From NCBI GenBank assembly GCA_963833225.1, contig CAWHXD010000011.1, positions 1-18,021 on the forward strand: DNA of 18,021 nucleotides, read 5' to 3'. The translations under genes and the position numbers were made by a program. The DNA comes from an uncultured Chloroflexia bacterium (GTDB taxonomy: Bacteria; Chloroflexota; Limnocylindria; Limnocylindrales; CSP1-4). Shown one piece after another: positions 437 through 15,955 of this stretch. Below the pieces are notes generated by a model. The model worked only from the letters and a program-made list of their open reading frames with translations. It was not told the origin of the DNA and did no database searches. Position 1 is the stretch's first letter. Every line of letters starts with the position of its first letter.

Positions 437-443
437 TCGGCCG

Positions 444-959
444 ATGGACGGCGTCGTGCTCGTGCTGAACCAGAACTACGAGCCGCTGAACGTGTGCAAC
501 ATCCCGCGGGCGTTCCGGCTGGTGTTCGGCTCCAAGGCCGAGGTGATCGAGTACAACCACGCCGAGATCCGGACGGTCCGGACCGTGTACAAGGCGCCAT
601 CGGTCATCCGCCTCCAGCACCACATCAAGCGCCCGCGCCCTCGCGTGAAGCTGACCCGGCGCGAGATCTTCAGCCGCGACCGGAACACCTGCCAGTATTG
701 CGGTCGCCAGTCGAACGACCTCACCCTGGATCACGTGCTGCCGCGCCATCGGGGTGGCGGTCACACCTGGGAGAACCTGGTCGCCGCGTGCAAGCCGTGC
801 AACCACCGCAAGGGCGGGCACACCCCCGAGGAGGCGCGCCTGCGACTGGTGCGGGCGCCGTTCGAGCCGCGCAGCGACCTGTACTCGCTGTTCACGCCGT
901 ACCTCGCCGACGCGCGCAACGAGGCCTGGAGGACATACCTGTTCCTCGGACGCAACTGA
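444..959 (+). CDS. HNH endonuclease family protein (McrA-like HNH with N-terminal VLVLNxxYEPL extension), 171 aa
   Basis: MDGVVLVLNQNYEPLNVC...PSVIRL...RREIFSRDRNTCQYCG...LTLDHVLPRHRGGGHTWENLVAACKPCNHRKG gives CxxC...DH...N...CxxCN, the zinc/HNH signature. The upstream part of ORF 63..959 is not protein-like. Confidence 0.92.
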   Translation: MDGVVLVLNQNYEPLNVCNIPRAFRLVFGSKAEVIEYNHAEIRTVRTVYKAPSVIRLQHHIKRPRPRVKLTRREIFSRDRNTCQYCGRQSNDLTLDHVLPRHRGGGHTWENLVAACKPCNHRKGGHTPEEARLRLVRAPFEPRSDLYSLFTPYLADARNEAWRTYLFLGRN

Positions 960-967
960 GCGGAGCC

Positions 968-2386
968 ATGGCAAACCCGGCCGGAGCGGCGTCGCGCCGC
1001 GGCCCGGACCTGAGCGATCGGCTCGAGCGGGCCATTCCCCCGGGTGTGCGTTCGCTCCTCGAGGAGCTTCATCGCTCCGGGAACGCCGCGTACCTGGTCG
1101 GTGGCTCGCTCCGGGACGTGATGATGGACCGCCGGCCCCTCGACTGGGACCTGGCCACCGATGCCCGACCCGATCGGCTGGTCGCCCTGCTCCATGATGC
1201 CGTGTACGAGAATCGATTCGGCACCGTCGCCGTTCGACGCGACGAGGGGGTGTTCGAGATCACGACCTTCCGGATTGAGCACGAGTACGCGGACTTCCGT
1301 CGACCTCATCGGGTGGAGTTCGGCGACGATGTCGTCGCGGACCTCGCCCGGCGCGACTTCACCATCAACGCGATGGCCTGGGGCCGCGCGGCCAGCCCGA
1401 ATGCTGACACGTACGAGCTGGTCGATCCGTTCGCGGGCCTCGACGATCTCGCGAGCCGGCGCCTGCGCGCCGTCGGCGATCCCGACGCACGGTTCCGAGA
1501 GGACGCCCTGCGCATGATCCGTGCCGTCCGACTTGCCGCCGTGCTCGAGCTCGAGATCGAGCCCGCCACGCTGGGCGCGATCTCGTCCAACGCGTCGCTC
1601 GTCGCTCACCTGTCCGGCGAGCGAATCGGTGGTGAGCTGGCCAAGCTGCTGGCCGCGCCACAACCGTCGATCGGGCTGCGGATCGCACAGCAGACCGGCG
1701 TGCTGGAGGTCCTCTCGCCCGAGCTCGCAGCGCAACGCGGGATCGCGCAGAACAAGGTGCCCGGCGAGGATCTCTGGGACCACACCCTGGGTACGGTCGA
1801 CGCGGCGCCCGCGGACCGGCCGGTCGTCAGGCTGGCGGCGCTCCTCCACGACATCGGCAAGCCGGCAACGCTCGCCGATGGCCGGTTCCATCACCACGAC
1901 GCGGTCGGGGCCCGTCAGGCCGACGCGCTCCTCCGACGCCTGCGCTACCCGCGGGCCGCAGCCGACGAGGTGACGCACCTCATCCGGCATCACATGTTCC
2001 CGATCGATCCCGACGCGACCGACGCCGCCGTCCGGCGGTTCATCAAGCGCGTCGGTCGGGAGCACGTCGACGCACTGTTCGAGCTCCGACGTGCCGATGA
2101 CATCGGAAGCGGGATGCCACCGGACGACCCGGATGTGCGCGCCCTCCGGACCCGCGTGGATGCGGAGATCGAGGCTGAGGCTGCCCTCGACCGGTATGCC
2201 CTGCGGATCGATGGCAACGACCTGATCCGCGAGCTCGGGCTGGAGCCGGGGCCCACGCTCGGGCGGATCCTCAACGCGCTGACGGACCAGGTCATCGCGG
2301 ACCCGGCGCTAAACGATCGGGGGTCGCTGCTGCTGCTCGCGCAGGGCATGCTCGCGGACGCGGACGCGGGGCCGGCGCCGTCATGA
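968..2386 (+). CDS. cca: Class II tRNA nucleotidyltransferase (CCA-adding type) with HD domain
   Basis: Motifs YLVGGSLRD..DWDLATDA, EITTFR, DLARRDFTINAMA, FREDALRMIRAVR and SGERI; HD domain WDHTL...LLHDIGKP; C-terminal IDGNDLIRELGLEPGPTLGRIL. GGAG precedes ATG968. Confidence 0.9.
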   Translation: MANPAGAASRRGPDLSDRLERAIPPGVRSLLEELHRSGNAAYLVGGSLRDVMMDRRPLDWDLATDARPDRLVALLHDAVYENRFGTVAVRRDEGVFEITTFRIEHEYADFRRPHRVEFGDDVVADLARRDFTINAMAWGRAASPNADTYELVDPFAGLDDLASRRLRAVGDPDARFREDALRMIRAVRLAAVLELEIEPATLGAISSNASLVAHLSGERIGGELAKLLAAPQPSIGLRIAQQTGVLEVLSPELAAQRGIAQNKVPGEDLWDHTLGTVDAAPADRPVVRLAALLHDIGKPATLADGRFHHHDAVGARQADALLRRLRYPRAAADEVTHLIRHHMFPIDPDATDAAVRRFIKRVGREHVDALFELRRADDIGSGMPPDDPDVRALRTRVDAEIEAEAALDRYALRIDGNDLIRELGLEPGPTLGRILNALTDQVIADPALNDRGSLLLLAQGMLADADAGPAPS

Positions 2387-3144
2387 TCGAGCTGCTGCTG
2401 CAGGCGGAGCGGGCGCTGTCCGTCGGTCTTGTCCACCAGGCCGAGGGGCTGTATCGCCAGGTCTCTGACGCCGATCCCCGGAACGCGATCGCCGTGGTCG
2501 GTCTGGCGCGGGTAGCGCTCGAACGCGCCGACGACGCGGAGGCCTACCGGCAGGCGCGGCGCGCGCTGTCGATCGATCCGGAGAACGTGGCGGCAATTCG
2601 GCTCGTGGCCCGGCTGGACGAGGTGTTTGCGTATCGTGGCCAGCCCCTGCCGAGCCTCGAGCCACCGGCCGGCCAGGGCCCACCCGTCCCACCGGACGCC
2701 GAACCCGCCACTCCGGTCGAACCCCGTCCTTCCGGAACGCCGTCGGCCACGGCGTCGGTGATGGCGGAGCCGGCGGGAGCAGCCCCGTTTCCCGCGCGCA
2801 CGGGCCCGGACCTCGAACCCGGTCTGGGACCGCCGGCAGGCAACGCGCCGGCGGGCGGCGAGGCACCATCCATCGGACCGCGACCAGCAGAACCGGGAGC
2901 ATCGGGGGCCGGTATCGCAGGTCCTGCCGCGAACCACCACCAGCCCGGGGCCACCACCACGCCAGGCGCCGGGTCCACGAACGCAGGGCGCGACACTCCC
3001 GGCACGTCCCCGCCGGCACCGTCCGTGCCAGGCCGAGTGACGGAGCCCGTGCCCTCCATGGCAACATCCGCTCTGCCGGCTCGGCCCGTCCCGCCACGCC
3101 GACGCAGCTTCATCGATCGGCTGCTTGGGAGGAATCGCACATGA
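2383..3144 (+). CDS. TPR-repeat protein with long Pro/Ala/Gly-rich disordered region and short amphipathic C-terminal tail
   Basis: About 85 N-terminal residues follow a TPR pattern (AEGLYRQVSDADPRNAIAVVGLARVAL; AYRQARRALSIDPENVAAI). ATGA overlaps with both cca and galE. Confidence 0.8.
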   Translation: MIELLLQAERALSVGLVHQAEGLYRQVSDADPRNAIAVVGLARVALERADDAEAYRQARRALSIDPENVAAIRLVARLDEVFAYRGQPLPSLEPPAGQGPPVPPDAEPATPVEPRPSGTPSATASVMAEPAGAAPFPARTGPDLEPGLGPPAGNAPAGGEAPSIGPRPAEPGASGAGIAGPAANHHQPGATTTPGAGSTNAGRDTPGTSPPAPSVPGRVTEPVPSMATSALPARPVPPRRRSFIDRLLGRNRT

Positions 3145-4157
3145 AGGTCCTCGTCACCGGCGGCGCCGGCTATGTCGGCGGCGTGTCCGTCGAGGCGATC
3201 CTCGCGGCCGGCCATGAGGTTGTCGTCCTCGACGACCTGTCCACCGGCCATCGTGAGATCCCTCACCCGGACGCGTCGCTCGTGGTGGGCTCGTACGGTG
3301 ACGAATCCGGCGTCCGTGACCTCCTCGAGCGGGCTGCCGTCGACGCGATCCTCCACTGCGGAGCGAGGTCACTGGTCGGGGAGAGCATCCAGGAGCCGGC
3401 GAGGTACTACCGGGAGAACGTGGCTGGAGGCATCGCGCTGCTCGAGGCTGCCCGGGCGGCCGGTGTCCGGCGCTTCGTGTTCTCGTCCACGGCCGCGGTG
3501 TACGGAACCCCCGACGCCACGCCCATTCGCGAGGACGCACCGCTGCGTCCGATCAACCCGTACGGCGAGACGAAGCGTACCTTCGAGGGTGCCCTTCGAT
3601 GGTACGGCGAGGCCTACGGCTTCCGGAGCATGATCCTCCGCTACTTCAACGTGGCCGGCGCGACGGAGCGGCTGGGCGAGGTCCACCGTCCCGAGACGCA
3701 CGTGATCCCGAACATGCTGATCGCCGCCGAAGGGGGACCGCCCCTCACCCTGTTCGGGAGCGACTATCCGACGCCCGATGGCACGCCGATCCGCGACTAC
3801 ATTCACGTCGCCGACCTGGCCGACGCGCATGTGGCCTCGCTGGAGGCAACGGCGCCGGGCGATCCTCGAACCGGACCCGTTGGCGGGGAGGCCGCGCTGC
3901 GGCCGCTCGTCTGCAACCTCGGCACGGCCTCCGGGTTCTCCGTCCGCGAGGTGCTCGCCGCCGGCGAACGGGTGGTCGGGCGGCCCATCCCGCATTCGGT
4001 CGGCCCGCGGCGAGCCGGTGACCCGCCGGTGCTGGTGGCGGCGAACGAGCGGGCCCGCGAGATCCTCGGCTGGACGCCTCGCCGGTCGACCCTCGACGAG
4101 ATGATCGGGTCCGCCTGGATCTGGCGGCGCGCCCACCCCGGCGGCTACGCGGACTGA
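3141..4157 (+). CDS. galE: UDP-glucose 4-epimerase
   Basis: MKVLVTGGAGYVG Rossmann motif, SLVGES, FSSTAAVYG, catalytic YGETK (YxxxK), LRYFNVAGA, DYPTPDGTPIRDYIHVADLADAH and RRAGDP. GGGAGG SD upstream. Confidence 0.96.
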   Translation: MKVLVTGGAGYVGGVSVEAILAAGHEVVVLDDLSTGHREIPHPDASLVVGSYGDESGVRDLLERAAVDAILHCGARSLVGESIQEPARYYRENVAGGIALLEAARAAGVRRFVFSSTAAVYGTPDATPIREDAPLRPINPYGETKRTFEGALRWYGEAYGFRSMILRYFNVAGATERLGEVHRPETHVIPNMLIAAEGGPPLTLFGSDYPTPDGTPIRDYIHVADLADAHVASLEATAPGDPRTGPVGGEAALRPLVCNLGTASGFSVREVLAAGERVVGRPIPHSVGPRRAGDPPVLVAANERAREILGWTPRRSTLDEMIGSAWIWRRAHPGGYAD

Positions 4158-4212: not shown

Positions 4213-6366
4213 TCAGGGCACCACCAGGTGAACCGGGTTGCCCACGACCGAGACCTGCCAGGTGGTCGTATCGTTGCCGCCGCTGGTGACCGTGTACTGG
4301 ATCTGCCACCAGCCGCCCTGCCACAGCGAGCCCGACCCGTACGACGAAGAGAGTGGGATGCTGATGTGGAGCCAGGTGTTGTTCGTGGCCTGGGCGCTGT
4401 TGTAGGTGGTAACGAACTGGCTGACGCCGTTGTATGTGCCGCACGGGCTGGTCCCCGTTCGGTTCACGCAGTTCGAGTCCGTGGTGTAGTTGAAGTTGAC
4501 CGCGTGCGGCGTCCCGCCATCGGGGCTGAGAACCCGGAGGGTGCCGTTGCCGCTGATGTCGCCCGCGTCGAACAGGTCGATCTGCGCCGTCTTCCCCGCT
4601 CCTGTCGCCCGGTCGATCTTGGCCAGGTAGAACTGCTGGATCCCGCCGTTGCTCGCGTCGTAGGCGAGGTTGTTGTAGACGGTCATCCGGCCGTTGCCGT
4701 AGATCTGCGGCGTGCCGCCGCCCACGGCCTCGATCGCCCACATGTTCTCGGCGTTGGTGCCGTCGTTGATCGAAGAGTCCGCGCTGGCGTTAGGCGGATG
4801 CGTCTTTGACGTCTGGATCTGCAGGACATAGGTGCCGCCACCCAGGTTGCCGGTCGGCACCGTCCACCAGGCATTGTGGTTTGCGTCACAGCTGTCGGTT
4901 GCTCCGCCCGGTTGGCCCGTCGTGCCCGTGTTGGCAGGGTCGTAGCCCTTCTGGCTCTCGAACAATGCGCCGGACGTGTACACCTGTGTCCACGTGGTGG
5001 GCAGCCCGAGCTTCCCGTTCGTGTTCCACACGGTGTAGTAGGTGGAGACGGGCGTGCCGCTGCTCCCGATCCAGTGGTCGCCGACGCCCAGGGAACCGCT
5101 GGCGCCGTTGCCTCCCATCGCACAGAACCCCGGGTCGAACACCCTGACGGTCCCGCCGGACGGGAGCTGGACGACGTATTTGTAGCCCTGCGGGTCGTAG
5201 TTGGCGTTACCCGAGCCCCCATCGTTGGCCGTCGCGTAGGCGTCGCCGTTCCCCTGCTGGCCGCCCTTGGTGATGATCGCTCCCCAGTTGCCCTGGCTGT
5301 TCAGGAACGTGCCATCCGGGTCGGTCACGCCGCGCGTCGTCGTCAACGTGGTGTTCGTGCTGTCCGTGTGCGAGTAGACGGTCACGAGCAGCGTGTTCAG
5401 CGACAGGGTGCCGCACCCGGACCCCTTCAGGTAAGTCAGGCGCACCCGGAAACTGCCGTTGGCGAAGTTCCCGGCCGACCAGGTGTGGTTGCTGTCCCAG
5501 AGCCCGAGATCTGACGCCGAGCCCAGCGTGTAGTTGACGTTGTTCCCCGTCGTGAGGGTGCCGGTCTGCTGCGGCTGGTCGGTCCAGGCGTTGCTGTTTC
5601 CGTTGTTCCAGTTGAGCTCGGCCCGCACCTTGCAGTTGGAGCCCGTGTTGACCTTGGCGTTGAACGACACAACGACGCCGTCCAGTATGGAGCCGCTGAT
5701 GCTCGGGATACCGAGCTGGGTCCATTGCTGCTGCTGCCCGTTGCTGGAGGTCGTCGTGTATCTACTGGTGCCCGTCTGCCATCCGTAGTTGGGGTTGGAC
5801 CACGCGCCAGAGCTCGGGTTCGAGGTGTAGCTTGGACGCGAGACGTCCGTGTACCGGTCTGTCGAGTGTGTCACGGTGTTCACGGTGAAATCGCCAACAC
5901 CGTAGTAGGCGAGCGGGCTGCCCATGGGGACGGGCAGGACATAGACACCCTTGGCCGACCGGGTCACCGGGAACGAGGTGATCCCGACGACGCGCGCGAA
6001 GAACGCGGGCACGCTGGCGCTGATCGTCACGTCCAGCTGGCGCGGATCGCCGCTGTCCTGGACCGGCGTGACGGTCACGCCGCCGCCGTCCGTGTAGCCG
6101 TTCTCGGTTGCCGATACCCGCGCCTCCAAGTACGCCTTCGTGGTGTCACCCGGCAGGTAGACGGCACCGGCCAGGGCTGCGGCGTCGGCGGCCCGTTGGA
6201 CTTGCAGGGTGGAGACCCAGTAGAACGAGATGTCCACCACGATGGCGCAGAGCGCGACGAACAGCGTGATCGAGAGCGCGAAGATGACCGCGACCTGACC
6301 GCGGGACCGTACGCGTGTCCGGGACTTCGAGTGGTGGGCACGCCGCAGCTGTGTGATCGAGGGCAT
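4213..6366 (-). CDS. TadG-like (Flp/Tad minor pilin) large adhesin-like protein, 717 aa
   Basis: Basic leader, then RSRG|QVAVIFALSITLFVALCAIVVDISFYW...QRAADAAALAGAVYLP (Tad N-terminal domain) and LDVTISASVPAFFARVVG. Followed by about 570 aa of Gly/Asn/Thr/Ser-rich beta structure with paired Cys. No vWA DxSxS motif seen. Confidence 0.85.
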   Translation of the reverse strand: MPSITQLRRAHHSKSRTRVRSRGQVAVIFALSITLFVALCAIVVDISFYWVSTLQVQRAADAAALAGAVYLPGDTTKAYLEARVSATENGYTDGGGVTVTPVQDSGDPRQLDVTISASVPAFFARVVGITSFPVTRSAKGVYVLPVPMGSPLAYYGVGDFTVNTVTHSTDRYTDVSRPSYTSNPSSGAWSNPNYGWQTGTSRYTTTSSNGQQQQWTQLGIPSISGSILDGVVVSFNAKVNTGSNCKVRAELNWNNGNSNAWTDQPQQTGTLTTGNNVNYTLGSASDLGLWDSNHTWSAGNFANGSFRVRLTYLKGSGCGTLSLNTLLVTVYSHTDSTNTTLTTTRGVTDPDGTFLNSQGNWGAIITKGGQQGNGDAYATANDGGSGNANYDPQGYKYVVQLPSGGTVRVFDPGFCAMGGNGASGSLGVGDHWIGSSGTPVSTYYTVWNTNGKLGLPTTWTQVYTSGALFESQKGYDPANTGTTGQPGGATDSCDANHNAWWTVPTGNLGGGTYVLQIQTSKTHPPNASADSSINDGTNAENMWAIEAVGGGTPQIYGNGRMTVYNNLAYDASNGGIQQFYLAKIDRATGAGKTAQIDLFDAGDISGNGTLRVLSPDGGTPHAVNFNYTTDSNCVNRTGTSPCGTYNGVSQFVTTYNSAQATNNTWLHISIPLSSSYGSGSLWQGGWWQIQYTVTSGGNDTTTWQVSVVGNPVHLVVP

Positions 6367-6378
6367 TTGTCGTCCCTG

Positions 6379-7023
6379 CTAGTTGGTCGGGTTGAGGTTC
6401 ATGACGGTCTTGTCCGACATGGTCAGCGACGACCAGCTCGACCCCCCGAAGAAGCCGATGATCCCGCCGAGCCCCGTCTGGAACGGGTAGCGGTACGTGA
6501 GCGATACGCCGAGCGCATCGGCGTCGACTCCGTTGTTCCGGGTGCAGGGCGACCAGCCGGTTGATGTCTGCCTGAAGTCAAGGGCTCGGCCGTCCACGGT
6601 GGGCCCGCCGCCCACGTCCAGGGACCACACGTTGGCGTTGCCGGTCGGAGTTCCGTCGCTCCTATTGGCCCGGTACACCGTGATGGTGCCGATCCGCGTA
6701 ATGTCGATGGGCGAGCCCGGCGATTGCAGGACGCGTTCCACCGCCGCCACGATCGGTGCGTCGAAGTTCGGCGTGGTGCACGGATAGGCGACGGTCCCTT
6801 TGCCCAGGGACGAACCCGCGCGGGCGCCCTCGCGGGTGGCGTAGGCAAGGGTCTGGTCATGGGTGAACGCGATCCCGAACTCGAGCATCCCGAGCAGAAG
6901 GAGCATGAACAGCGGCACCAGCATCGCGAATTCGACCAGGCCCTGGCCCCGCTGTTCACCCCACGGATGCCGTCCGGCGCGCAAGCGAATCGAGAGCGGC
7001 CGCGCGGCCAGAAGCCAGCTCAC
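6379..7023 (-). CDS. tadE: TadE family minor pilin (pseudopilin), 214 aa
   Basis: EQRG|QGLVEFAMLVPLFMLLLLGMLEFG...AYATREGARAGS shows the prepilin cleavage Gly, Glu+5, a hydrophobic helix and REGAR. C-terminal GVSLTYRY. GTG start overlaps the upstream TGA (GTGA). Confidence 0.9.
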   Translation of the reverse strand: MSWLLAARPLSIRLRAGRHPWGEQRGQGLVEFAMLVPLFMLLLLGMLEFGIAFTHDQTLAYATREGARAGSSLGKGTVAYPCTTPNFDAPIVAAVERVLQSPGSPIDITRIGTITVYRANRSDGTPTGNANVWSLDVGGGPTVDGRALDFRQTSTGWSPCTRNNGVDADALGVSLTYRYPFQTGLGGIIGFFGGSSWSSLTMSDKTVMNLNPTN

Positions 7024-7655
7024 AGCACGGGCTCCATCCGCATGGCGTTGGACTGGGTCAGCGTCGTGCCGGATCCGCCGAGGGAGACGAGGTTCGCGAG
7101 CGGCGTGACCCAGGTGTGCCGGTACTCGATCTTCACGCCGATCGTGTCCACCGTGTCATGGCCAGGCGGACAGCCGGCCAGGACGTTGCAGCGAGTGTCC
7201 GCCGCGTAGGTCAGGTTCCCGGGATCCGCGGAGTACGGGACTGTCAGCACGCCGCCATCGAGCAGGGTGCAGGTCGTGGAGCCGGTCCGCGTGTAGATGT
7301 CCTCCTGCCCGCCATACACCGCCCCATTCCGGTCCGACCGGTAGATCACGACCTGGATGATCCGCGAGGGATCGGCGGGTGCGGTGACGTCGCTCTCGAT
7401 CTGCCGAAGGATGATGCAATCGGCGGCCGGGGAATTCCCGGCCTCAGCTGCGACCAGCGCCGCATCCCGTGTTGCATGCCCGATGGACAGAAGCGCATTG
7501 AACACGAACGAGAACTCGAGCAAGCCCATCATCATCGTGATCACGATCGGGAACACGAGGGCGAATTCGACCAGCGTCTGCCCACCCTGACGATGCCCGA
7601 GGCGCCCTCTGCCCGTCCCGCGGGAACGATGCGTAAGGCCGAAGGGACGGCTCAT
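7020..7655 (-). CDS. tadE: TadE family minor pilin (pseudopilin), 211 aa
   Basis: HRQGG|QTLVEFALVFPIVITMMMGLLEFS...ATRDAALVAA, and GVKIEYRHTWVTPL...AMRMEP. GGGAG SD (7666-7670 on -) before ATG7655. The longer ORF extension to 8531 overlaps the + strand gene and is not protein-like. Confidence 0.9.
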   Translation of the reverse strand: MSRPFGLTHRSRGTGRGRLGHRQGGQTLVEFALVFPIVITMMMGLLEFSFVFNALLSIGHATRDAALVAAEAGNSPAADCIILRQIESDVTAPADPSRIIQVVIYRSDRNGAVYGGQEDIYTRTGSTTCTLLDGGVLTVPYSADPGNLTYAADTRCNVLAGCPPGHDTVDTIGVKIEYRHTWVTPLANLVSLGGSGTTLTQSNAMRMEPVL

Positions 7656-8035
7656 CGGCGGCACGCTCCCTCTTGCACGATGGGTGCGCAGGACTGGGGC
7701 AGCTGCGCACGGGATCGATGTGACCGACATGGAGCTTGGCTCATGCGCGACCGTTTGCCTCTCGATGACACGCCAATCTTCGGACGTGACCCGCAACATA
7801 CGATTGCGTCCTTGAATGAGACCTTGCCGCGGTGCCGCCCGACACCGTACGTTCGTCACTGCGGGGTCATCCGAACGGGCCTCGACCGTGCAGTCGCCCT
7901 CTGCCGGTGGCCCCGCGAGGTCGCCGATCAGGCGGTCGGCGGCGCAGGCTGGCCGAGGTTGCGGATCGCGGGTTGACGCGACACCGCCACCTGCCGGGCG
8001 CGGTCCACGGCCGAGTCCCGCATCGAGACCCGAAG

Positions 8036-8064
8036 GCCCGTGCCCGTGCCCGTGCCCGTGCCCG
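8036..8064. repeat. Hexanucleotide tandem repeat (GCCCGT)x4 + GCCCG
   Basis: Read directly: gcccgt gcccgt gcccgt gcccgt gcccg, ending 7 nt upstream of the TAGCAT -10 box. Confidence 0.9.
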
Positions 8065-8071
8065 CTCGGGT

Positions 8072-8077
8072 TAGCAT
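8072..8077 (+). promoter_or_regulatory. -10 element (TAGCAT) of a probably leaderless transcript for the ligase-like gene
   Basis: TAnnnT followed by TCGGTCG and ATG8085. The spacer is nearly identical to that of the HNH gene (TCGGCCG-ATG). No SD. Confidence 0.55.
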
Positions 8078-8084
8078 TCGGTCG

Positions 8085-8834
8085 ATGACGGCAGGAAGCA
8101 CAGCGCGAGACGTCGCAGCAGCCTGGCAGCCGCAACGACCCGGCAAGCGGTTCGTTCACGACATTCCGAACGCCATCGTGGAGCCGGAATGGGGTGGGGC
8201 GCGGACGGTCGCGGCGCTGACTCCGGACGAGGCCGCGCTGTTCCGCGACGGGGCCGAGCTGACGGTCGCCCGGGAGCTCGTGCAGGCGCTGGTGACTGGC
8301 TTCACCGCCCTGGAGGCGATCGTCGAGGGCCACGTCACGACAGCAGCCCTCAAGAGCGACCGTGGCGCGGTCCCGAGCCCGCCCGAGGTGGAGCGCCCGG
8401 CGCTGCTCGTGCCTCGGTGGATCCGCCGGCGATCGCCCGCTCACCGAGATGCCGCGGCCCGAGATCGGGAGATCCGGCTGGCGCGCCAGGAGCAGGCGAC
8501 CCTGGACTCGCTGGCGGGCGGCGAGCGCCATGCGTTCGTGGCGACGGATCTGCTGCTGCTCGACGGCCAGCCACTCGACGACGTGCCGTTGCTGGAACGG
8601 AAGCGGCTGCTCGAGGCCGTCCTGGTGGTGTCGGACCTGGTCCGCGTGTCGGCATTCGTCCGCCCTTCATCGACCGATATCCTGGCGTCCTGGGGCGCGC
8701 TCGGATTCACGGAGCTCTCGTACCGCGGCAGCAACAGCCGCTACCTTGCCGGTCGCGAGAACCCGGATTGGGCGATCGGCGCGGCGCCGCGAAACGCGCG
8801 CGAGCCGGCAGCAGCGACCAGGCGCCAGCCGTAA
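8085..8834 (+). CDS. ATP-dependent DNA ligase adenylation-domain homolog (LigD/LigC-like), predicted catalytically inactive, no OB domain; 249 aa
   Basis: Colinear ligase motifs: VEPEWGGAR (cf. EPKWDGxR), IVEGH (cf. LDGE), FVATDLLLLDGQPLDDVPLLERKRLLEAVL (cf. YxAFDLLxLDGxDLxxxPLxERRxxLxxLL), GFTELSYR (cf. GxEGxxxK) and NSRYLAGRENPDW (cf. DSxYxPGxRSxxWxKxK). Confidence 0.8.
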   Translation: MTAGSTARDVAAAWQPQRPGKRFVHDIPNAIVEPEWGGARTVAALTPDEAALFRDGAELTVARELVQALVTGFTALEAIVEGHVTTAALKSDRGAVPSPPEVERPALLVPRWIRRRSPAHRDAAARDREIRLARQEQATLDSLAGGERHAFVATDLLLLDGQPLDDVPLLERKRLLEAVLVVSDLVRVSAFVRPSSTDILASWGALGFTELSYRGSNSRYLAGRENPDWAIGAAPRNAREPAAATRRQP

Positions 8835-8860
8835 CCCGTTCCTCGGCCGGGCCACGCCGG

Positions 8861-8869
8861 TGGTAGGGT
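8861..8869 (+). promoter_or_regulatory. Extended -10 (TGG-TAGGGT) of a probably leaderless transcript for the glucosylglycerate operon
   Basis: TGn + TAnnnT ends 6 nt before GTG8876. No SD. Confidence 0.5.
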
Positions 8870-8875
8870 GGATGC

Positions 8876-10279
8876 GTGCCCGCGACGACGCTGACGCCCG
8901 CCATCCGGGAGGAGATCGCCCGCCTGGGACGAGCCGACATCATGGTCGGCATCCCCAGCTTCAAGAACGCGGCCACGATCGGCTACGTGGTACGCGCGGC
9001 GCACGCGGGTCTGGTCCAGTACTTCCCGGACCTCAAGCCCGTGCTCGTCAACTCGGACGCGGGCAGCCCCGACGGGACCCAGCGCGTGGTGGTCGACACC
9101 GAGCCCCCGGACTACGTCGAATCGATCCTGCTCGTCCGCCCCACCAACCGCCTGGTCCGGGTGACGCTCACCTATCCTGAGATCGACGGTATCGGTGGCA
9201 AGGGCGCGGCGCTGCGCACGATCTTCGAGATCGCGGCGGCGCTCGAGGTCCAGGCCCTGGTCGTCGTCGACAGCGACCTGCGGAGCATCCTCCCCGAGTG
9301 GATCGAGCTGCTGGCGGGGCCGATCCTCAAGGGCGGCTACGACTTCGTCGCCCCGCTGTATGCCCGCTACAAGTACGACGGCACGATCACGAACACGGTC
9401 ACCTACCCGCTCACGCGGGCGCTCTATGGTCACCGGATCCGGCAGCCGATCGGCGGCGACTTCGGCGTCAGCGGCGACCTGGTGCGTCACTACCTCGAGC
9501 TCGACGACTGGACCCAGGAGATCAGCAAGTTCGGGATCGACATCTGGATGACGACCTCGGCCCTGACCGGCGGGTACGCCGTGTGCCAGACACGACTGGG
9601 TGCCAAGGTCCACGACCCCAAGGATCCCGGCGCCGACCTCGGCCCGATGTTCCGCCAGGTGGTGAGCACGATCCTGCGCATGGCCGCCAGCCATCCCGAG
9701 GCGTGGCTGGAGATCCGCGGCAGCCACGACATCCCGGCCTACGGGTTCGAGCGCCTCATCGACCCACCGCCGCTGGAGGTGAACGCGCTTCGGCTGCTGT
9801 CCGAGTTCCATGCCGGCTCGCTGACGGTCGCCGACACGTGGCGCCGGATGCTCGACCCGGTCAACGCGGACGCGGTGCTGGTCCTGGCCGCCGAGGCGGG
9901 CCAGCTGGTGGATGCAGCTTCGCGGCAATTCGGGCTGGGCGCGGAGACCTCAGCGCCCGTATCCACGCTCGACATGGCGGAAGCGCTGTCCGCGTTCCAC
10001 TTCCCCGACGACCTCTGGGCGCGCGTGATCTACGACCTGGTCGTCGCGACCCGGAAGGGCAGCGTTGACGACGCGCAGCTCGTGGCCGCGCTGGTCCCGA
10101 TCTACTTCGGCCGGGTCGGCAGCTTCGTGATCGAGAACCGCCACCTGACCACCGCTGACGCCGAGGACCGGGTGGAACGTCAGGCCCGGCAGTTCGAGCT
10201 CCTCAAGCCCTACCTCGTCGAACGCTGGCGGGCCCTGGACGAGCCGTCGGCGGGCGAGGACGGAGCGGCGAGCACGTGA
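8876..10279 (+). CDS. GT-A glycosyltransferase of the glucosylglycerate synthase (Ggs) / mannosylglycerate synthase-like family
   Basis: ADIMVGIPSFKNAATIGYVV, VLVNSDAGSPDGT, GKGAALRTIFE, VVDSDLRSI (DxD), PLYARYKYDGTITN, IRQPIGGDFG, FGIDIWMTT and LGAKVHDPKDPG. Sits directly upstream of gpgS. Confidence 0.78.
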   Translation: MPATTLTPAIREEIARLGRADIMVGIPSFKNAATIGYVVRAAHAGLVQYFPDLKPVLVNSDAGSPDGTQRVVVDTEPPDYVESILLVRPTNRLVRVTLTYPEIDGIGGKGAALRTIFEIAAALEVQALVVVDSDLRSILPEWIELLAGPILKGGYDFVAPLYARYKYDGTITNTVTYPLTRALYGHRIRQPIGGDFGVSGDLVRHYLELDDWTQEISKFGIDIWMTTSALTGGYAVCQTRLGAKVHDPKDPGADLGPMFRQVVSTILRMAASHPEAWLEIRGSHDIPAYGFERLIDPPPLEVNALRLLSEFHAGSLTVADTWRRMLDPVNADAVLVLAAEAGQLVDAASRQFGLGAETSAPVSTLDMAEALSAFHFPDDLWARVIYDLVVATRKGSVDDAQLVAALVPIYFGRVGSFVIENRHLTTADAEDRVERQARQFELLKPYLVERWRALDEPSAGEDGAAST

Positions 10280-12201
10280 GCGCTGAGCCCCTCCCCGCGC
10301 GCATCCTGATCCCGGTCGCCAACCCGCTCACGGCCGAGGAGCTGGTCCGGATCGGCGCGTCGCTGATGGATCCGCGGACCGGCGAGCTGACCGCGCTGGG
10401 AATCGTCGAGGTCCCGGAGGGCATGCCGCTGAGCGACGGCGCCACGCGGGCGCGCCAAGCCCGGCGGCTGCTGCAGAAGGTGCTCGATTACGTGCCCGAG
10501 GGCACCATCATCCATCCGCTGGTCCGGATCGGCCGCCACGCCGCCGCGGGCATCGTCGAGGCCGCCGCCGAGCAGGAGGCGGACCTGATGATCTTCGGCT
10601 GGGGCGGCAAGTCCACGCCCGGCAGGGACGCGCGAGGCCCGGTCATCTCACCCACGATCGACGAGGTCGTCCGCAAATCACCCTGCGACATCGCCGTCGT
10701 CAAGCAGCGCGGGGCCCACGAGGTCCGCCGGATCCTGGTCCCGGTCCGCGGCGGGCCGCACGCCGAGCTGGCCCTGCGGTTCGCCGATGCGCTGGCCCAC
10801 CGCTACGGGGCCACGGTCGCCGTCATGCATCTCGTCCCCGCCGGCGTGACCGAGGCGGTCCGAGCGCAGGCCGAGCATGCGCTGGCCGCGTTCGTCCGCC
10901 AGCACGTGACCGCCCGATCAGAGCAGGTGCTGCGGGAGACGGCCAACGTGCGGACGGCCATCCTGCGCGAGGCCGAGCGTGCCGACCTCGTGGTGATGGG
11001 TGCCTCGGCGCCGCCCGGCGATCCGGGCAGCTCGCTGTTCGGGTCGCTGCCCGAGGCCATCGCCCAGCGCGCCCGGCCAACCGTCATCGTGGTCAAGACC
11101 CGCGAGCCGATCGGCCGCCAGACCTTCGAGCACCTGGCCGAGAAGGCGGAGTCGCTGGCCGCGGCCGATCGGGCTGCCGAGGAGGCCCGTGCGATCCCCG
11201 CCCGTGTCGAGCGCTGGTTCGCGGAGGCAAACTTCCACCACTCCGAGTTCGCGGACCTGGCCCGGCTCTCGGCGCTCAAGGAAAAGCAGGGCGTCACGGT
11301 CAGCCTGGTGCTGCCGACGCTCAACGAGGCCGAGACGATCGGGCCGATCGTGCGGCGCGCGATCCGGGAGATGCAGCAGCGGTACCCGCTGGTGGACGAG
11401 ATCCTGGTCATCGACTCCGCCTCCACCGATGACACTCGCGGGATCGCGGTGCGCGAGGGTGCGCGAGTCGTCCGGCACCCGGACGTGCTGGCCAGGTACG
11501 GCTCGTTCCGGGGCAAGGGCGAGGCGCTCTGGAAGTCGCTCTACGAGACGTCGGGCGACATCGTCGTGTGGGCCGACACGGACGTCCGCAACTGGCACCA
11601 CCGGATGGTCTACGGAACGCTGGGCCCGCTGCTCGTGGAACCCCGCCTCCAGTACGTCAAGGGCTACTACCAGCGTCCGATCGTCGAGGCCGGCGTGCTC
11701 AAGGAGGGCGGCGGCGGCCGGGTCACCGAGCTCGTGGCGCGTCCCCTGATCAACCTGTTCTTCCCCGAGCTGTCGGGGCTGATCCAGCCGCTGTCCGGCG
11801 AGTATGCCGGGCGGCGGTCGCTGCTCGAGCAGCTGCCGTTCTTCACCGGCTACGCCGTCGAGATCGGGCACCTCATCGACGCCGTGGAGCGGGCCGGGCT
11901 GGGCGGCCTGGGCCAGGTTGATCTCGAGCGCCGCGTCCACCGCAACCAGGAGCTCGAAGGGCTGTCCCGGATGTCGTTCGTGATCCTCCAGGCGGTCATG
12001 AAGCGCCTCGAGGAGCGACGGCGTGTCCGGCTGTTCGCGGAGCTCGGGTCCACGATGAAGCTGCCTCGGTCCGGGCGTGGACGGCTCTCGCTCGAGGTCC
12101 AGGAGCTTGCCGACCACGAGCGACCGCCGATGATCCGGATCCCGGAATACCTCGAGAAGCGTCGCGCCGAGACGGGCGCCGGCGACGATCACGCCGATTG
12201 A
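10276..12201 (+). CDS. gpgS: Fusion: two N-terminal universal stress protein (USP) domains + glucosyl-3-phosphoglycerate synthase
   Basis: USP1 RILIPVANP...ADLMIFGWGG...IDEVVRKSPCDIAVVK; USP2 RILVPVRGGPHAELAL...ADLVVMGAS...FGSLPEAIAQRARPTVIVVK. GpgS motifs VSLVLPTLNEAETIG, VIDSASTD, GKGEALWKSL, WADTD, KGYYQRP, GGRVTELVARP, QPLSGEYAGRR, GYAVEIG and HRNQ. GTGA overlap with the upstream gene. Confidence 0.9.
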   Translation: MSAEPLPARILIPVANPLTAEELVRIGASLMDPRTGELTALGIVEVPEGMPLSDGATRARQARRLLQKVLDYVPEGTIIHPLVRIGRHAAAGIVEAAAEQEADLMIFGWGGKSTPGRDARGPVISPTIDEVVRKSPCDIAVVKQRGAHEVRRILVPVRGGPHAELALRFADALAHRYGATVAVMHLVPAGVTEAVRAQAEHALAAFVRQHVTARSEQVLRETANVRTAILREAERADLVVMGASAPPGDPGSSLFGSLPEAIAQRARPTVIVVKTREPIGRQTFEHLAEKAESLAAADRAAEEARAIPARVERWFAEANFHHSEFADLARLSALKEKQGVTVSLVLPTLNEAETIGPIVRRAIREMQQRYPLVDEILVIDSASTDDTRGIAVREGARVVRHPDVLARYGSFRGKGEALWKSLYETSGDIVVWADTDVRNWHHRMVYGTLGPLLVEPRLQYVKGYYQRPIVEAGVLKEGGGGRVTELVARPLINLFFPELSGLIQPLSGEYAGRRSLLEQLPFFTGYAVEIGHLIDAVERAGLGGLGQVDLERRVHRNQELEGLSRMSFVILQAVMKRLEERRRVRLFAELGSTMKLPRSGRGRLSLEVQELADHERPPMIRIPEYLEKRRAETGAGDDHAD

Positions 12202-12232
12202 CGATGGACCGCGCGTGACGATGGACCGCGCG
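12199..12232. repeat. Perfect 17-bp tandem duplication TGACGATGGACCGCGCG x2 across the gpgS stop / glycerate kinase start
   Basis: Copies at 12199-12215 and 12216-12232, read directly. Confidence 0.92.
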
Positions 12233-13366
12233 CGGGCTGGTGCGGGGCATCGGTTGCACGTGCTCATCGCCCCCGACTCGTTCAAGGGCGCGCTCACCAG
12301 CGTCGAGGTCGCGCGCGCGCTCGAGGTGGGCTGGCTGCGAGCTCGACCCGCCGACGAGATCCGGTTGGCGCCGCTGGCAGACGGCGGCGAGGGGACGCTG
12401 GTCGCGATCGAGGCTGCCGGCCAGTGGCAGTGGCGAGAAGCGGATGCCCTCGACCCCCTGGGCCGCCCGATGCGCGCACGCTGGCTGGCGCGCGATGACG
12501 GCAGGGCCGCGATCGTCGAGATGGCCGCTGCATCGGGCCTGTCGCGGCTGGCTCCCAGGGAACGCGACGCCCGTGGGGCCACCAGCCACGGAGTGGGAGA
12601 CCTGCTGCGCGCCGTGCTCGACGCCGGGATCCGCGACATCGCTCTTGGGATCGGGGGCAGCGCGACCACCGACGGAGCCGCGGGTCTGCTGCGTGCGCTC
12701 GGCGCAGACGTCGCCGACGACCTCGGCGCGGTTGACCTGTCCGGGCTTGATCCGCGACTCGCAGAGACGAGGCTACGGATCGCGTGTGACGTGACGAACC
12801 CGCTGCTCGGGCCGGCCGGTGCGGCCGCCACCTACGGTCCGCAGAAGGGCGCCGACGCGGAGGACGTCGCCCTGCTGGACGCCCGGCTGGCACGGTTCGC
12901 CGATGCGATGGAGACGGCAACCGGGCGGCGCGAGCGCGACACGCCGGGCGCCGGCGCGGCCGGTGGCGTCGGGTTCGGCCTGCTGTGCCTGACCGACCGG
13001 TTCGCGTCGCTCGAGCTGCGACCCGGGATCGACCTGGTGATGGAGGAGGCCGGCTTCGACCGGGCCCTGGCGAGCGCCGATCTCGTGCTCACCGGGGAGG
13101 GGCGGATCGACGTCCAGACCGCGTTCGGCAAGACGGCGCTCGGGGTCGCTCTTCGGGCGCAGGCCGCCGGCAAGCCGTGCATCGCGATCGGAGGCGGGGT
13201 GACAGCCGAGGGAGTCGAGGCCATGGCGACCGTCGACGCGGTGGCCGTGCCGGTCGTGGAGCATCCACAGACCGTCGAGGCGGCGATGGCCGCGGGGACC
13301 GCCCCGCTCGAGCGCTGTGGCGAGCGCGTGGCTCGCCTGGTCAGCCTGGGAGCCCAACGTGGCTAG
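12221..13366 (+). CDS. glxK: Glycerate kinase (GlxK/GarK family)
   Basis: VLIAPDSFKGALTS, PLADGGEGT, IVEMAAASGL, ATSHGVG, LGIGGSATTDG, ACDVTNPLLGPAGAAATYGPQKGA, PGAGAAGGVGFGL and LTGEGRIDVQTAFGK. Start is ATG12221 or GTG12215. Confidence 0.94.
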   Translation: MDRARAGAGHRLHVLIAPDSFKGALTSVEVARALEVGWLRARPADEIRLAPLADGGEGTLVAIEAAGQWQWREADALDPLGRPMRARWLARDDGRAAIVEMAAASGLSRLAPRERDARGATSHGVGDLLRAVLDAGIRDIALGIGGSATTDGAAGLLRALGADVADDLGAVDLSGLDPRLAETRLRIACDVTNPLLGPAGAAATYGPQKGADAEDVALLDARLARFADAMETATGRRERDTPGAGAAGGVGFGLLCLTDRFASLELRPGIDLVMEEAGFDRALASADLVLTGEGRIDVQTAFGKTALGVALRAQAAGKPCIAIGGGVTAEGVEAMATVDAVAVPVVEHPQTVEAAMAAGTAPLERCGERVARLVSLGAQRG

Positions 13367-14243
13367 GTCCACGGGTGGACGGGTGCCCTCGGAGACTGTG
13401 GCGACCACGAGCGCATCGAAGCCGGATGCGCGCAGGAGCGTGCCGTCGCGCAAGGCCCGCAAGACCGTCGACCCGACACGGAGGTGGGCGAGCTACCTGC
13501 GCCGGTACCGGCCCGGGCTCCAGCGATACGTGCTGGACGGTCTCGCCGGCGTCTACGGCGCGCAGCACTGGGAGCCTCGCCTCGACCCCACGAGCGAGCT
13601 CGTGCTCACGATCCTGACCCAGAACACCGCCGACGTGAACGCCGAGAAGGCGTACGAGGCTCTTCGGATCGCGTACCCGAGCGATCGAGCGCCCGAGATC
13701 CACCGGCCTGGCATCGGCTGGGGCGGGGAGGGACTGTCCACTGCGGCGCCGCCTGACTGGTCGATGGTCGAGAACGCTCCCCTGCCCGAGCTCATCGACG
13801 TGATCCGGCCCGGCGGCCTGGGGCCCCAGAAGGCACCCCGGATCCAGGCCATGCTGCGCCATATCCGGGAGCAGCGCGGTGACTACTCGCTCGGGTTCCT
13901 GGGCGAGCTGGCCCCGCTCGAGGCACGCGACTGGCTGACCGCGATCGACGGCATCGGCAGAAAGACCGCATCGATCGTGCTCCTGTTCTGCTTCGGGATG
14001 CCGCTGATGCCTGTCGACCGCCATGTGGAGCGGGTCAGCCAGCGGATCGGCCTCATCCCGCTCAAGGCGACGGCCGATCAGGCCCACGACCTGTTCCTCG
14101 GATTGCTCGAGCCTGACGAGATGTACGCCGCACACGTGCTGCTCATCCACCACGGACGAGCCATGTGCCACGCCCGGAACCCCAAGCACGAGCTGTGCCC
14201 CATCGCCGACCGGTGCCGGTTCGTGAGCTCGAAGGCGCCCTGA
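13359..14243 (+). CDS. nth: Endonuclease III-like HhH-GPD DNA glycosylase/AP lyase with variant Fe-S motif
   Basis: ELVLTILTQNTADVN, IRPGGLGPQKAPRI, HhH LTAIDGIGRKTASIVLLF (Lys kept), MPVDRHVERV (Asp kept), and C-terminal CHARNPKHELCPIADRC. GGGAG SD before GTG13359, which overlaps the glxK stop. Confidence 0.88.
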   Translation: MARSTGGRVPSETVATTSASKPDARRSVPSRKARKTVDPTRRWASYLRRYRPGLQRYVLDGLAGVYGAQHWEPRLDPTSELVLTILTQNTADVNAEKAYEALRIAYPSDRAPEIHRPGIGWGGEGLSTAAPPDWSMVENAPLPELIDVIRPGGLGPQKAPRIQAMLRHIREQRGDYSLGFLGELAPLEARDWLTAIDGIGRKTASIVLLFCFGMPLMPVDRHVERVSQRIGLIPLKATADQAHDLFLGLLEPDEMYAAHVLLIHHGRAMCHARNPKHELCPIADRCRFVSSKAP

Positions 14244-14275
14244 TCGGCGCCCAGGAACGCCCAGCCCGGAGACCG

Positions 14276-15955
14276 ATGATGCCCAATCCCGACGACGCGG
14301 CCGCCACCCTGGAAGGCGTCCTTCGCGATCTGCTCGCCGCCGACTTCGACGCGGCCCCGGTTGCCGCCAGCGCCCTCGGGCTGACCGACTTCGACGAGCG
14401 CCTCGACGATCTGTCGGCCGATGCGTTCCGGGCCCGCGACGCTGACGCCGCAACCTTCCTCGCGCGTCTCGACGCCATCGCCGTCGCGTCGCTGACCGCC
14501 GAGGGGGCCATCGACCGCGATCTGGCCCGCTCGACGCTCGCGGGCCGGCTGATCATGGCGTCGTTCGAGCCCTGGAAGCGAGATCCCGTGGTGTACTCCG
14601 GGCCGATCACGGGTGGCCTGTTCACCCTGTTCCTCCAGCGTCTGCGTCCGGAGGCCGACCTCGTCGATGCCGCCATCGCGCGGCTGGAGCAGGCGGGAGA
14701 CGCCGTCAATTCGGGGATCGAGAACCTCGATGCCACGCTCGCCCATCCGCTGATCGTCGAGCGCGGCATGAGCGCCGCGAAGGGTGCGGTTCGTTACGTC
14801 CGGGACCTCGTCCTGCTCGAGATCGAGGACGGCCGCGACCGGGATCGGCTGCAGACGGCCGGGGCGGCCGCCGCTGCGCACCTCGAGCGCTGGGTCGCCC
14901 ACCTCGACGACCTGCGCAGCAGAGCCCGCGGCACCTGGCAGCTGGGTGAGGAGCGCTACACGCAAATCCTTCGCGAGCGCGAGGTCCTGAGCGACGACGC
15001 CCACTCGCTTCGTGATCGCGGCTGGCAGGAGCTCGAACGCCTCGACACCCAGATGACCGCGCTCGCCCGCGACGCGACCGGCAACCCGGACTACGTGGAT
15101 GTCCTGCGCGACGACGACGAGCATCACCCACCCACCGAGCAGGCGATGCTCGACAGCTATGCCGAATGGACCGCGCGGGCGCGGGCCTTCCTGGTCGAGA
15201 CGGGACTGGTCACGCTGCCGGCCGGCGAGACCTGCGCGGTCGTGCCCTCGCCCGTGTTCCAGCGACCCGTGGTGGGCGTGGCCTCGTACACGGCGCCGCC
15301 GTCCTTCTCGGATCGCTGGAAGGGGCACTTCTTCGTCCCGTTCGCCCCGGACGGGGCGTCGGAGACCGAGGTCGAGTCACGGCTGGCGAGCAACTCATAC
15401 GGATCGATCCCGTCCACGACGGTCCACGAGACCTATCCGGGTCACCACTGGCACCTCGTCATGCGCAAAGCCCATGCGTCCGAGGTCCGGCGCGTGTACT
15501 CGACGCCGTACTTCAACGAGGGCTGGGCGCTCTACGCGGAGCGCGTGATGCGCGAGCGCGGGTTCTTCGAGAACCCGATCCACGAGCTCCACCATCTCAA
15601 CGCGAGCCTGTTCCGGGCGGCCAGGATCATCGTCGACACCTCGCTCCACCTGGGCGAGATGTCGTTCGACGAGGCGGTCGACTTCATGCGCGACCGGACG
15701 GCGATGCCCGAGCCGGTGGCCAGGGTGGAGGTCGGCCGCTATTGCTGGTGGCCCACGCAGGCCTCCTCGTACCTGACCGGCTGCCTGGAGATCCTCGCGA
15801 TCCGCGAGCGGTATCTGGCAGCACGCGGGCTCGCCGCTGTGCCCCCCGCCGATGTGCCGGTCGAGGTGCTGCGCGGGTTCCATGACACGATCACCTCCTC
15901 GGGGGCGCTGCCGCTGGGTCTCGCCGAGCGTGCGGTGATGGCCGCGGTCGCCTGA
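14276..15955 (+). CDS. DUF885 family protein (putative zinc metallopeptidase fold), no signal peptide
   Basis: PVAASALG..D..LDDLS N-terminus, VHETYPGHH, FNEGWALYAE, LFRAARIIVDTSLHLG, EVGRYCWWPTQASSYLTG and FHDTITSSGALPL. GGAG before ATG14276/14279. Confidence 0.88.
   Translation: MMPNPDDAAATLEGVLRDLLAADFDAAPVAASALGLTDFDERLDDLSADAFRARDADAATFLARLDAIAVASLTAEGAIDRDLARSTLAGRLIMASFEPWKRDPVVYSGPITGGLFTLFLQRLRPEADLVDAAIARLEQAGDAVNSGIENLDATLAHPLIVERGMSAAKGAVRYVRDLVLLEIEDGRDRDRLQTAGAAAAAHLERWVAHLDDLRSRARGTWQLGEERYTQILREREVLSDDAHSLRDRGWQELERLDTQMTALARDATGNPDYVDVLRDDDEHHPPTEQAMLDSYAEWTARARAFLVETGLVTLPAGETCAVVPSPVFQRPVVGVASYTAPPSFSDRWKGHFFVPFAPDGASETEVESRLASNSYGSIPSTTVHETYPGHHWHLVMRKAHASEVRRVYSTPYFNEGWALYAERVMRERGFFENPIHELHHLNASLFRAARIIVDTSLHLGEMSFDEAVDFMRDRTAMPEPVARVEVGRYCWWPTQASSYLTGCLEILAIRERYLAARGLAAVPPADVPVEVLRGFHDTITSSGALPLGLAERAVMAAVA

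Follow-up and report, generated by a model that had tools for sequence, protein, structure and literature searches.

The window analysed here is the whole 18,021 nt stretch of contig CAWHXD010000011.1, from an uncultured Chloroflexia bacterium. It contains a gene in which two universal stress protein (USP) domains precede a glycosyltransferase (GT) of the glucosyl-3-phosphoglycerate synthase (GpgS) type, and we find that this fusion is intact, recurs across the Chloroflexota and is under purifying selection in its USP pair. Judging from known enzymes the GT domain is almost certainly active, and it would form glucosyl-3-phosphoglycerate (GPG). Conservation and selection support a function for the USP pair, and the reading that we tentatively put forward is that the USP pair stems from transporters, binds an adenine nucleotide and adjusts the activity or assembly of a GPG-forming enzyme.

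As stated in the original prediction, the gene is a single uninterrupted open frame of 641 codons (10276-12201); it lies on the forward strand and has a GTG start and no internal stop. The two USP domains which that prediction placed at about 10290-11100 are both recognised by the Pfam family PF00582 (51.8 and 53.6 bits against a gathering score of 24). The proposed helical linker was likewise recovered, as residues 281-318 are helical in the AlphaFold model with low confidence at 285-288, and the linker is the least conserved part of the protein (mean column conservation 0.30). For the full-length model the mean pLDDT was 87.1 and the pTM 0.56, hence the domains are predicted with confidence but their mutual arrangement is not. 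The coordinates are collected in Table 1.

Table 1. Features in and around the fusion gene, in window positions
Feature	Position	Strand	Basis
Upstream GT-A glycosyltransferase, 467 aa, presumed Ggs/Mgs-like	8876..10279	+	weak PRK13915 match; stop overlaps fusion start by 4 nt
USP-USP-GpgS fusion gene, 641 aa	10276..12201	+	open frame, Pfam, NCBIfam, predicted structure, Foldseek
USP domain 1 (L11, V44, R60, R63, R84, G108-W109, P136-C-D138)	10300..10704	+	Pfam; alignment
USP domain 2 (P156-x-R-G-G-P161, G242, G256 conserved)	10723..11097	+	Pfam; alignment
Linker, residues 276-308, predicted helical	11101..11199	+	alignment; predicted structure
GpgS/MpgS-type GT-A domain, residues 310-623	11203..12144	+	PRK13915; structure alignment; conserved residues
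Glycerate kinase	12215..13366	+	PF02595 and TIGR00045 over cut-off; 13 nt 3' of fusion
Endonuclease III-like glycosylase	13317..14243	+	co-directional neighbour, no shown pathway link

A split gene or an assembly join can be ruled out by the relatives. A homologue search scored 8000 sequences, of which 4644 passed, and the best 120 of these were all 615-650 aa long with both the USP and the GpgS parts. We further surveyed 301 genomes sampled across the Chloroflexota, with four candidates scored per genome. Some match to the fusion was found in 108 of them and an uninterrupted match over the USP and GT parts in 92 (39-100% identity), while one further genome carried the fusion as two frameshifted pieces; the fusion-bearing genomes span 21 families. 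Among the same candidates no stand-alone GpgS of this type exceeded the cut-off, the best (in G220) reaching 136 bits, and in about three in ten of the sampled genomes a GpgS of the fusion's type comes only with the USP pair. Two small genomes of the same order (G133 and G269, 1.1-1.2 Mb) had no match to the fusion. In the 114 close and 42 distant loci that we fetched, 145 of the 156 fusion hits were full length, 4 were cut at locus or contig ends and 7 were frameshifted at scattered positions. The original prediction had named a stop between the USP and GpgS parts in relatives as the sign of an error, and none of the 156 hits showed a clean stop within the linker. The closest to such a case is L055, in which several frameshifts compensate one another and a stop falls within a scrambled part where the GT domain begins; we read this as indel noise or decay. 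One full-length relative carries an Acidobacteriota label. The names borne by close homologues put the organism in the Chloroflexota, Ca. Limnocylindrales.

In a tree of 114 GT domains (FastTree, midpoint root, 61 of 150 representatives dropped for an incomplete GT domain) all 72 USP-fused rows fell inside one branch of 85 rows with a local support of 92, together with 13 other rows. This pattern would fit one old fusion with later losses; it does not prove it. A literature search, with subscription journals and supplements outside its reach, found no description of a USP and GpgS architecture, in agreement with the earlier statement that no characterised example of it was known, and, with subscription journals again outside, nothing among the papers listed that joined Chloroflexota or Limnocylindria with glucosylglycerate or GpgS terms. 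In the databases the USP-USP-GpgS architecture is plentiful under automatic names. The parts of the fusion are all of known kinds; what the present analysis adds is the phylum-wide count along with the exchange of the upstream enzyme, the lead to a KCC-type pocket and the degenerate paralogues described below.

The GT domain scored 367.1 bits against PRK13915, the NCBIfam model of GpgS, over residues 310-623 (cut-off 262). Foldseek aligned it to Rubrobacter MpgS (3o3p) with a TM score of 0.90 of the target and a root mean square deviation (rmsd) of 2.1 Å, and to mycobacterial GpgS with 0.85-0.90. The catalytic residues given for the mycobacterial enzyme in an excerpt of PMC2581804 (Glu54, Ser81, Lys114, Asp134, Asp136, Thr187, Tyr229, Glu232, His258 and Met269) map by alignment to E351, S381, K414, D434, D436, T484, Y526, E529, H555 and M566 of the fusion, and each of these was found in 50 of 50 sequences of alignment A1, which holds 50 diverse members of the fusion family and underlies all residue counts out of 50 given here. 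With the family score, the fold and the mapped residues in agreement, the earlier assignment as a GpgS stands. The label glucosylglycerate synthase was not borne out, as the product would be the phosphorylated precursor GPG, and this label fits the upstream gene better. The comparison once made with known GpgS enzymes is valid for the mycobacterial type only; the type of Persephonella and methanogens (NF040724, GpgS_Meth) can be ruled out, as its model gave 30.5 bits where 700 are required, and the two types have been called unrelated in sequence (PMC3736172).

The GpgS enzymes characterised so far stand alone, and our literature search brought up no case in which one of them is controlled directly. 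The mycobacterial GpgS (3e25, 4y6n, 7p5l; family GT81; PMC2581804, excerpt) shares with the fusion the DxD motif, the Lys-Asp-Glu network, the Ser argued to favour UDP or ADP donors, the PLSGE loop, the acceptor Thr and the metal His, but it is about 325 aa long, whereas the fusion carries 275 residues of USP pair at its N-terminus, a conserved C-terminal hairpin (586-628) and a Gln in place of Arg261.

In comparisons with 39 close relatives the two USP domains had the same median dN/dS of 0.12, and the GT domain had 0.087; it should be noted that all 39 pairs include the window sequence and hence are not independent. The motifs quoted in the original prediction, GWGG...SPT and GASA...FGS, are present, and the view that the nucleotide motifs are partly degenerate stood in one respect. 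The canonical ATP-binding motif G-2x-G-9x-G(S/T), as worded in an excerpt of PMC12159084, is absent from both USP domains, USP domain 2 fitting a loose form only. The motifs have not simply decayed, since the canonical form is rare in the whole family (3 of 50 in USP domain 1, 1 of 50 in USP domain 2) and conservation lies on other residues instead: V44, S53-x-G55, R60, R63 (50 of 50), R84, W109, P136-C-D138 and R158-G-G-P. A canonical ATP-binding USP of the MJ0577, Rv2623 or TeaD class is thereby ruled out; the tandem USPs Rv2623 and TeaD share the fold, but they are separate proteins having the motif that the fusion lacks.

The conserved set is shared with USP pairs linked to permeases. The strongest USP-only matches in the phylum survey came from the C-terminal tails of APC amino-acid permeases, besides a few pairs that stand alone; ten in all were fetched and scanned, and W109 is kept in all ten. 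A profile built from the fusion USPs alone scored all seven permease tails at 100-210 bits and the three solo pairs at 177-200 bits, while the canonical tandem USP of the source genome reached 41, making the permease pairs the closest sequence relatives of the fusion's pair. In a USP tree, computed by a quick method with a midpoint root and giving no direction of transfer, nine of the ten permease or solo pairs group with a support of 90.

No significant match came from a PDB search with the single USP-part sequence, in which the best USP had an E of 0.14; in profile searches Rv2623 and TeaD were the best matches. Modelled alone, the USP pair is compact (pLDDT 91.9, pTM 0.90), and its best structural matches were tied: Rv2623 (3cis; Z 21.8, rmsd 3.4, 256 residues aligned), the regulatory C-terminal domain of KCC-1 (Z 21.5, rmsd 3.2, 252 aligned) and the prokaryotic CCC domain 3g40 (Z 20.9, rmsd 2.8, 231 aligned). 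The CCC regulatory domain (3g40, KCC1/KCC3, NKCC1) shares the two-lobed fold at Z 20-21.5. According to an excerpt of PMC8280820, the first USP-like lobe of KCC1 binds ATP or ADP through L697 (beta1), V730 (beta2) and G794 and W795 (beta4/alpha4 loop). The fusion has L11, V44 in beta2 and G108 and W109 at the end of beta4, all on the corresponding elements and with the same spacing (33/64/65), and these were kept in 41, 48, 32 and 46 of 50 members, respectively. From this we infer a candidate adenine nucleotide pocket of KCC type in USP domain 1. R63, R84 and R158, which are invariant or nearly so, would suit an anionic ligand, and conserved arginines could stand in for the phosphate-binding residues of KCC1.

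In the mechanism that we propose, the GT domain would transfer glucose from UDP- or ADP-glucose to 3-phosphoglycerate, while the first domain of the transporter-like USP pair would take up ATP or ADP, by which the pair would tune the activity or assembly of the enzyme. From the GPG formed, an unlinked or histidine-type phosphatase may then remove the phosphate, or the upstream enzyme may add a further sugar, to yield a glycosyl-glycerate solute. We infer the gating of the enzyme by the USP pair; ligand-dependent regulation of some kind seems somewhat probable, and ATP or ADP as the ligand is a more tentative suggestion. Further, we speculate that in an ancestor of much of the phylum the enzyme which commits the cell to glycosyl-glycerates received, as a graft, the nucleotide-binding regulatory domain of osmoregulatory transporters, the prokaryotic kin of the KCC/NKCC C-terminal domain. 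One adenylate signal would then serve both synthesis and transport of solutes. On balance we consider this scenario unlikely. Chloroflexota are abundant in soils and sediments. Glucosylglycerate levels follow salt and nitrogen stress (PMC5381378, excerpt). The effect of ATP or ADP on the KCC regulatory domain is described as still open in the excerpt of PMC8280820, and a soluble enzyme with a KCC/NKCC-like module would make that question easy to assay. If the graft took place, the activity of the enzyme would report what nucleotide binding to the module does, and catalytically dead paralogues may act as regulatory subunits; with a passive USP module, the protein would be an ordinary conserved domain fusion.

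Several observations, along with the missing canonical motif, weigh against the proposed regulation by a nucleotide. The equivalence with KCC is one of topology and spacing and not a residue-level superposition, sequence identity with these domains amounts to 10-16%, a profile of the permease tails retrieved zero KCC chains from the PDB at E 10, and 3g40 was matched by the A3 profile at E 0.53, no better. K699, D701, K707 and Y708, which bind phosphate in KCC1, are replaced by P13, A15, E21 and E22 at the same spacing, the V44-W109 distance of 65 occurs in just 16 of 50 members and 18 of 50 have lost G108. The module of permeases and CCC transporters here stands N-terminal to a soluble enzyme. 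With its pTM of 0.56 the model of the single chain leaves any contact between the USP pair and the enzyme undefined. For the catalytic part, the Gln at the position of Arg261 is the sole change among the mapped catalytic residues, the closest solved relative is the mannosyl enzyme Rubrobacter MpgS, and S507 of the PLSGEY loop is Ala (PLAGE) in 24 of 50 members. Among 80 fusion-bearing genomes, chosen from 93, an HAD phosphatase of MpgP/GpgP type (TIGR01486) over the cut-off was found in none, against 2 of 14 control genomes.

The USP module is also not always tied to catalysis, as in 20 of the 47 USP-fused representatives one or more of five strict catalytic motifs are missing, and in several of these three to five, although the pair is kept. 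This suggests pseudoenzymes that retain the USP pair. P0257, P0245, P0239, P0232, P0271 and P0207 are of the USP-USP-GT arrangement with several catalytic motifs lost and the pair kept, and it is possible that they are regulatory pseudoenzymes. P0245 is labelled Dehalococcoidia and P0207 Acidobacteriota.

These paralogues would also suit a purely structural module, in which the USP pair would serve to stabilise the enzyme or to form oligomers of it, or would bring it onto the upstream glycosyltransferase for handing over the product, with no gating by a ligand. The rarity of the canonical motif and the absence of the KCC1 lysines point the same way, a purely stabilising role of the nucleotide has been raised for the KCCs themselves (PMC8280820, excerpt), and a second glycosyltransferase lies directly upstream in most loci, being a Ggs/Mgs-like GT-A gene in 110 of the 114 close loci and a GT4 gene in 35 of the 42 distant ones. 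However, the fold of this upstream partner changed from GT4 to GT-A while the USP residues stayed, the stand-alone GpgS works and dimerises without such a module (PMC2581804, excerpt), and the three arginines named above would suit an anionic ligand. We consider the structural module somewhat unlikely.

The upstream gene, whose match to PRK13915 is 55.8 bits, found only GpgS chains beside this model; among the models and chains searched no Ggs model or chain matched. It is presumed to be Ggs/Mgs-like. In the Atlas clusters next to it, 10-95% of the members have the MGS_GT domain. The glycerate kinase accompanies the fusion in 104 of the 114 close loci, and a scan of 7900-14400 for promoters and terminators found none. 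Persephonella marina reportedly has a ggs-gpgS-gpgP cluster with a linked phosphatase. That cluster and the mannosylglucosylglycerate (MGG) pathways of Petrotoga and Rhodopirellula (PMC3736172) have a one-step-like synthase beside GpgS, as here, but the Persephonella GpgS is of the other sequence type and has no USP fusion, and its linked phosphatase is missing at the fusion locus. Glycerate kinase is known from such glycosyl-glycerate clusters (PMC7178133, excerpt).

Across the 80 fusion-bearing genomes, GT-A partners were present genome-wide in 26 of 26 genomes of the source's own class and GT4 partners in 1 of 26, while in other classes GT4 was found in 51 of 54 and GT-A in 7 of 54; the two partners are nearly mutually exclusive and occupy the same position. 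This exchange would fit two glycosyltransferases that work in series and not as parallel routes. The upstream enzyme would then add a second sugar to GPG or glucosylglycerate, and the pathway would end in a di-glycosyl glycerate, or in a primer for some larger glycan, instead of free glucosylglycerate. The lack of a known HAD phosphatase in the fusion-bearing genomes is consistent with this, and serial GpgS-MggA chemistry is known (PMC3736172). On the other hand, the GT4 proteins score 58.8 and 84.4 bits against an MggS cut-off of 640, the glycerate kinase suits a one-step synthase using free glycerate, and the exchange counts only once since it is probably one evolutionary event. A series of this kind is thus unlikely in our view.

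In 10 of the 42 distant loci a histidine phosphatase adjoins the fusion. The source genome, which is 86% complete, has three histidine phosphatases; these score 50-85 bits against the fusion-adjacent ones, which score 137-224 among themselves, hence none is a clear orthologue. Neither an MGH1-like hydrolase nor a close glucosylglycerate phosphorylase (best 31% identity) was found in this incomplete genome. An MggS-like GT4 occurs in 3 of the 42 distant loci and an MGH1-like hydrolase in 3. In 15 of the 42, for example L120:9130-11244, a gene for a glycogen-debranching or MGH1-like hydrolase is followed by GT4 and then the fusion.

With regard to the sugar donor, glucose is probable from the comparison with known enzymes, and the gene context also favours it. 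The contrary view is that the catalytic domain prefers GDP-mannose and that the operon makes mannosylglycerate, irrespective of what the USP pair does. Rubrobacter xylanophilus MpgS (3f1y, 3kia, 3o3p) is the best PDB match both by sequence (E 9.5e-77, against 1e-59 for mycobacterial GpgS) and by fold, and the PxGG loop of the upstream gene resembles that of MgS, this gene also lying next to clusters with the MGS_GT domain. Rubrobacter MpgS uses both mannose and glucose. It has no USP domains, its loop reads PLAGEF where the fusion has PLSGEY, and it has Ala and Val where S381 and E351 of the fusion match the GpgS enzymes using UDP or ADP donors. Ser81 of GpgS, the counterpart of the invariant S381, is argued to exclude GDP donors (PMC2581804, excerpt). 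The PLSGEY loop also speaks for glucose, but it is a weak donor marker, given the PLAGE members and the PLGGEY of the proven GpgS of M. hassiacum. Glucosylglycerate phosphorylase is recognised by TETN and a Glu of YELN/YEIN type (PMC7178133, excerpt), and a GH13 gene with both signatures stands beside the fusion in 3 of the 42 distant loci; further, P0180 (1383 aa) is a triple fusion of GT4, GpgS and a GH13 glucosylglycerate phosphorylase. A preference for GDP-mannose therefore appears improbable.

It is also improbable that the USP pair senses cyclic di-AMP (c-di-AMP) and ties solute synthesis to the potassium and osmotic network in the manner of the staphylococcal KdpD USP domain, which binds this ligand (PMC4686210 and PMC8214093, excerpts): all 80 fusion-bearing genomes have a diadenylate cyclase, but so do 11 of 14 controls, hence it does not discriminate, no KdpD chain was among the best 50 structural matches listed for the USP-pair model, and the DarA-type c-di-AMP receptor genes, which in 2 of the 42 distant loci come after the fusion and a CPA2 antiporter (GT4, fusion, antiporter and receptor in one run at L143:4038-9168 and L142:4717-9703), are limited to one family of the sample.

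GpgS-type domains were found with other partners as well. In three representatives (P0183, P0198 and P0222; cluster members labelled Spirochaetota and Caldithrix) the domain is fused to PTS EIIA, which is a distinct instance of a GpgS-type enzyme bearing a regulatory-type domain. P0211 joins it to a TIR domain, and HAD, histidine phosphatase and GT4 domains are further partners; with these fusions the GpgS-type enzyme seems to attract add-on domains. In P0167 and P0202 GpgS is joined to a second GT-A domain, that of P0167 being 35% identical to the upstream gene of the window.

A few observations concern the surroundings of the gene. At 12199-12232 a 17-nt tandem duplication covers the fusion stop and the glycerate kinase start, with an in-frame ATG from the second copy only. 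An ORF resembling ATP-dependent DNA ligase (8040-8834), far under the family cut-offs, lies upstream of the operon, as it does in 17 of the 19 close loci clustered. A block of genes for HNH, CCA-adding enzyme, TPR, GalE, GT-A, fusion, glycerate kinase and endonuclease III occurs in two copies in the bin with 72-88% protein identity, one at 441-4157 and 8876-14243 of the window and the other at G000:C6:219460-229665, where the GT-A copy is in two frames. The contig of the window is probably from a related organism binned in. TadG/TadE-like pilus genes (4213-7700, reverse strand) lie between GalE and the operon in the window and are not there in the C6 copy.

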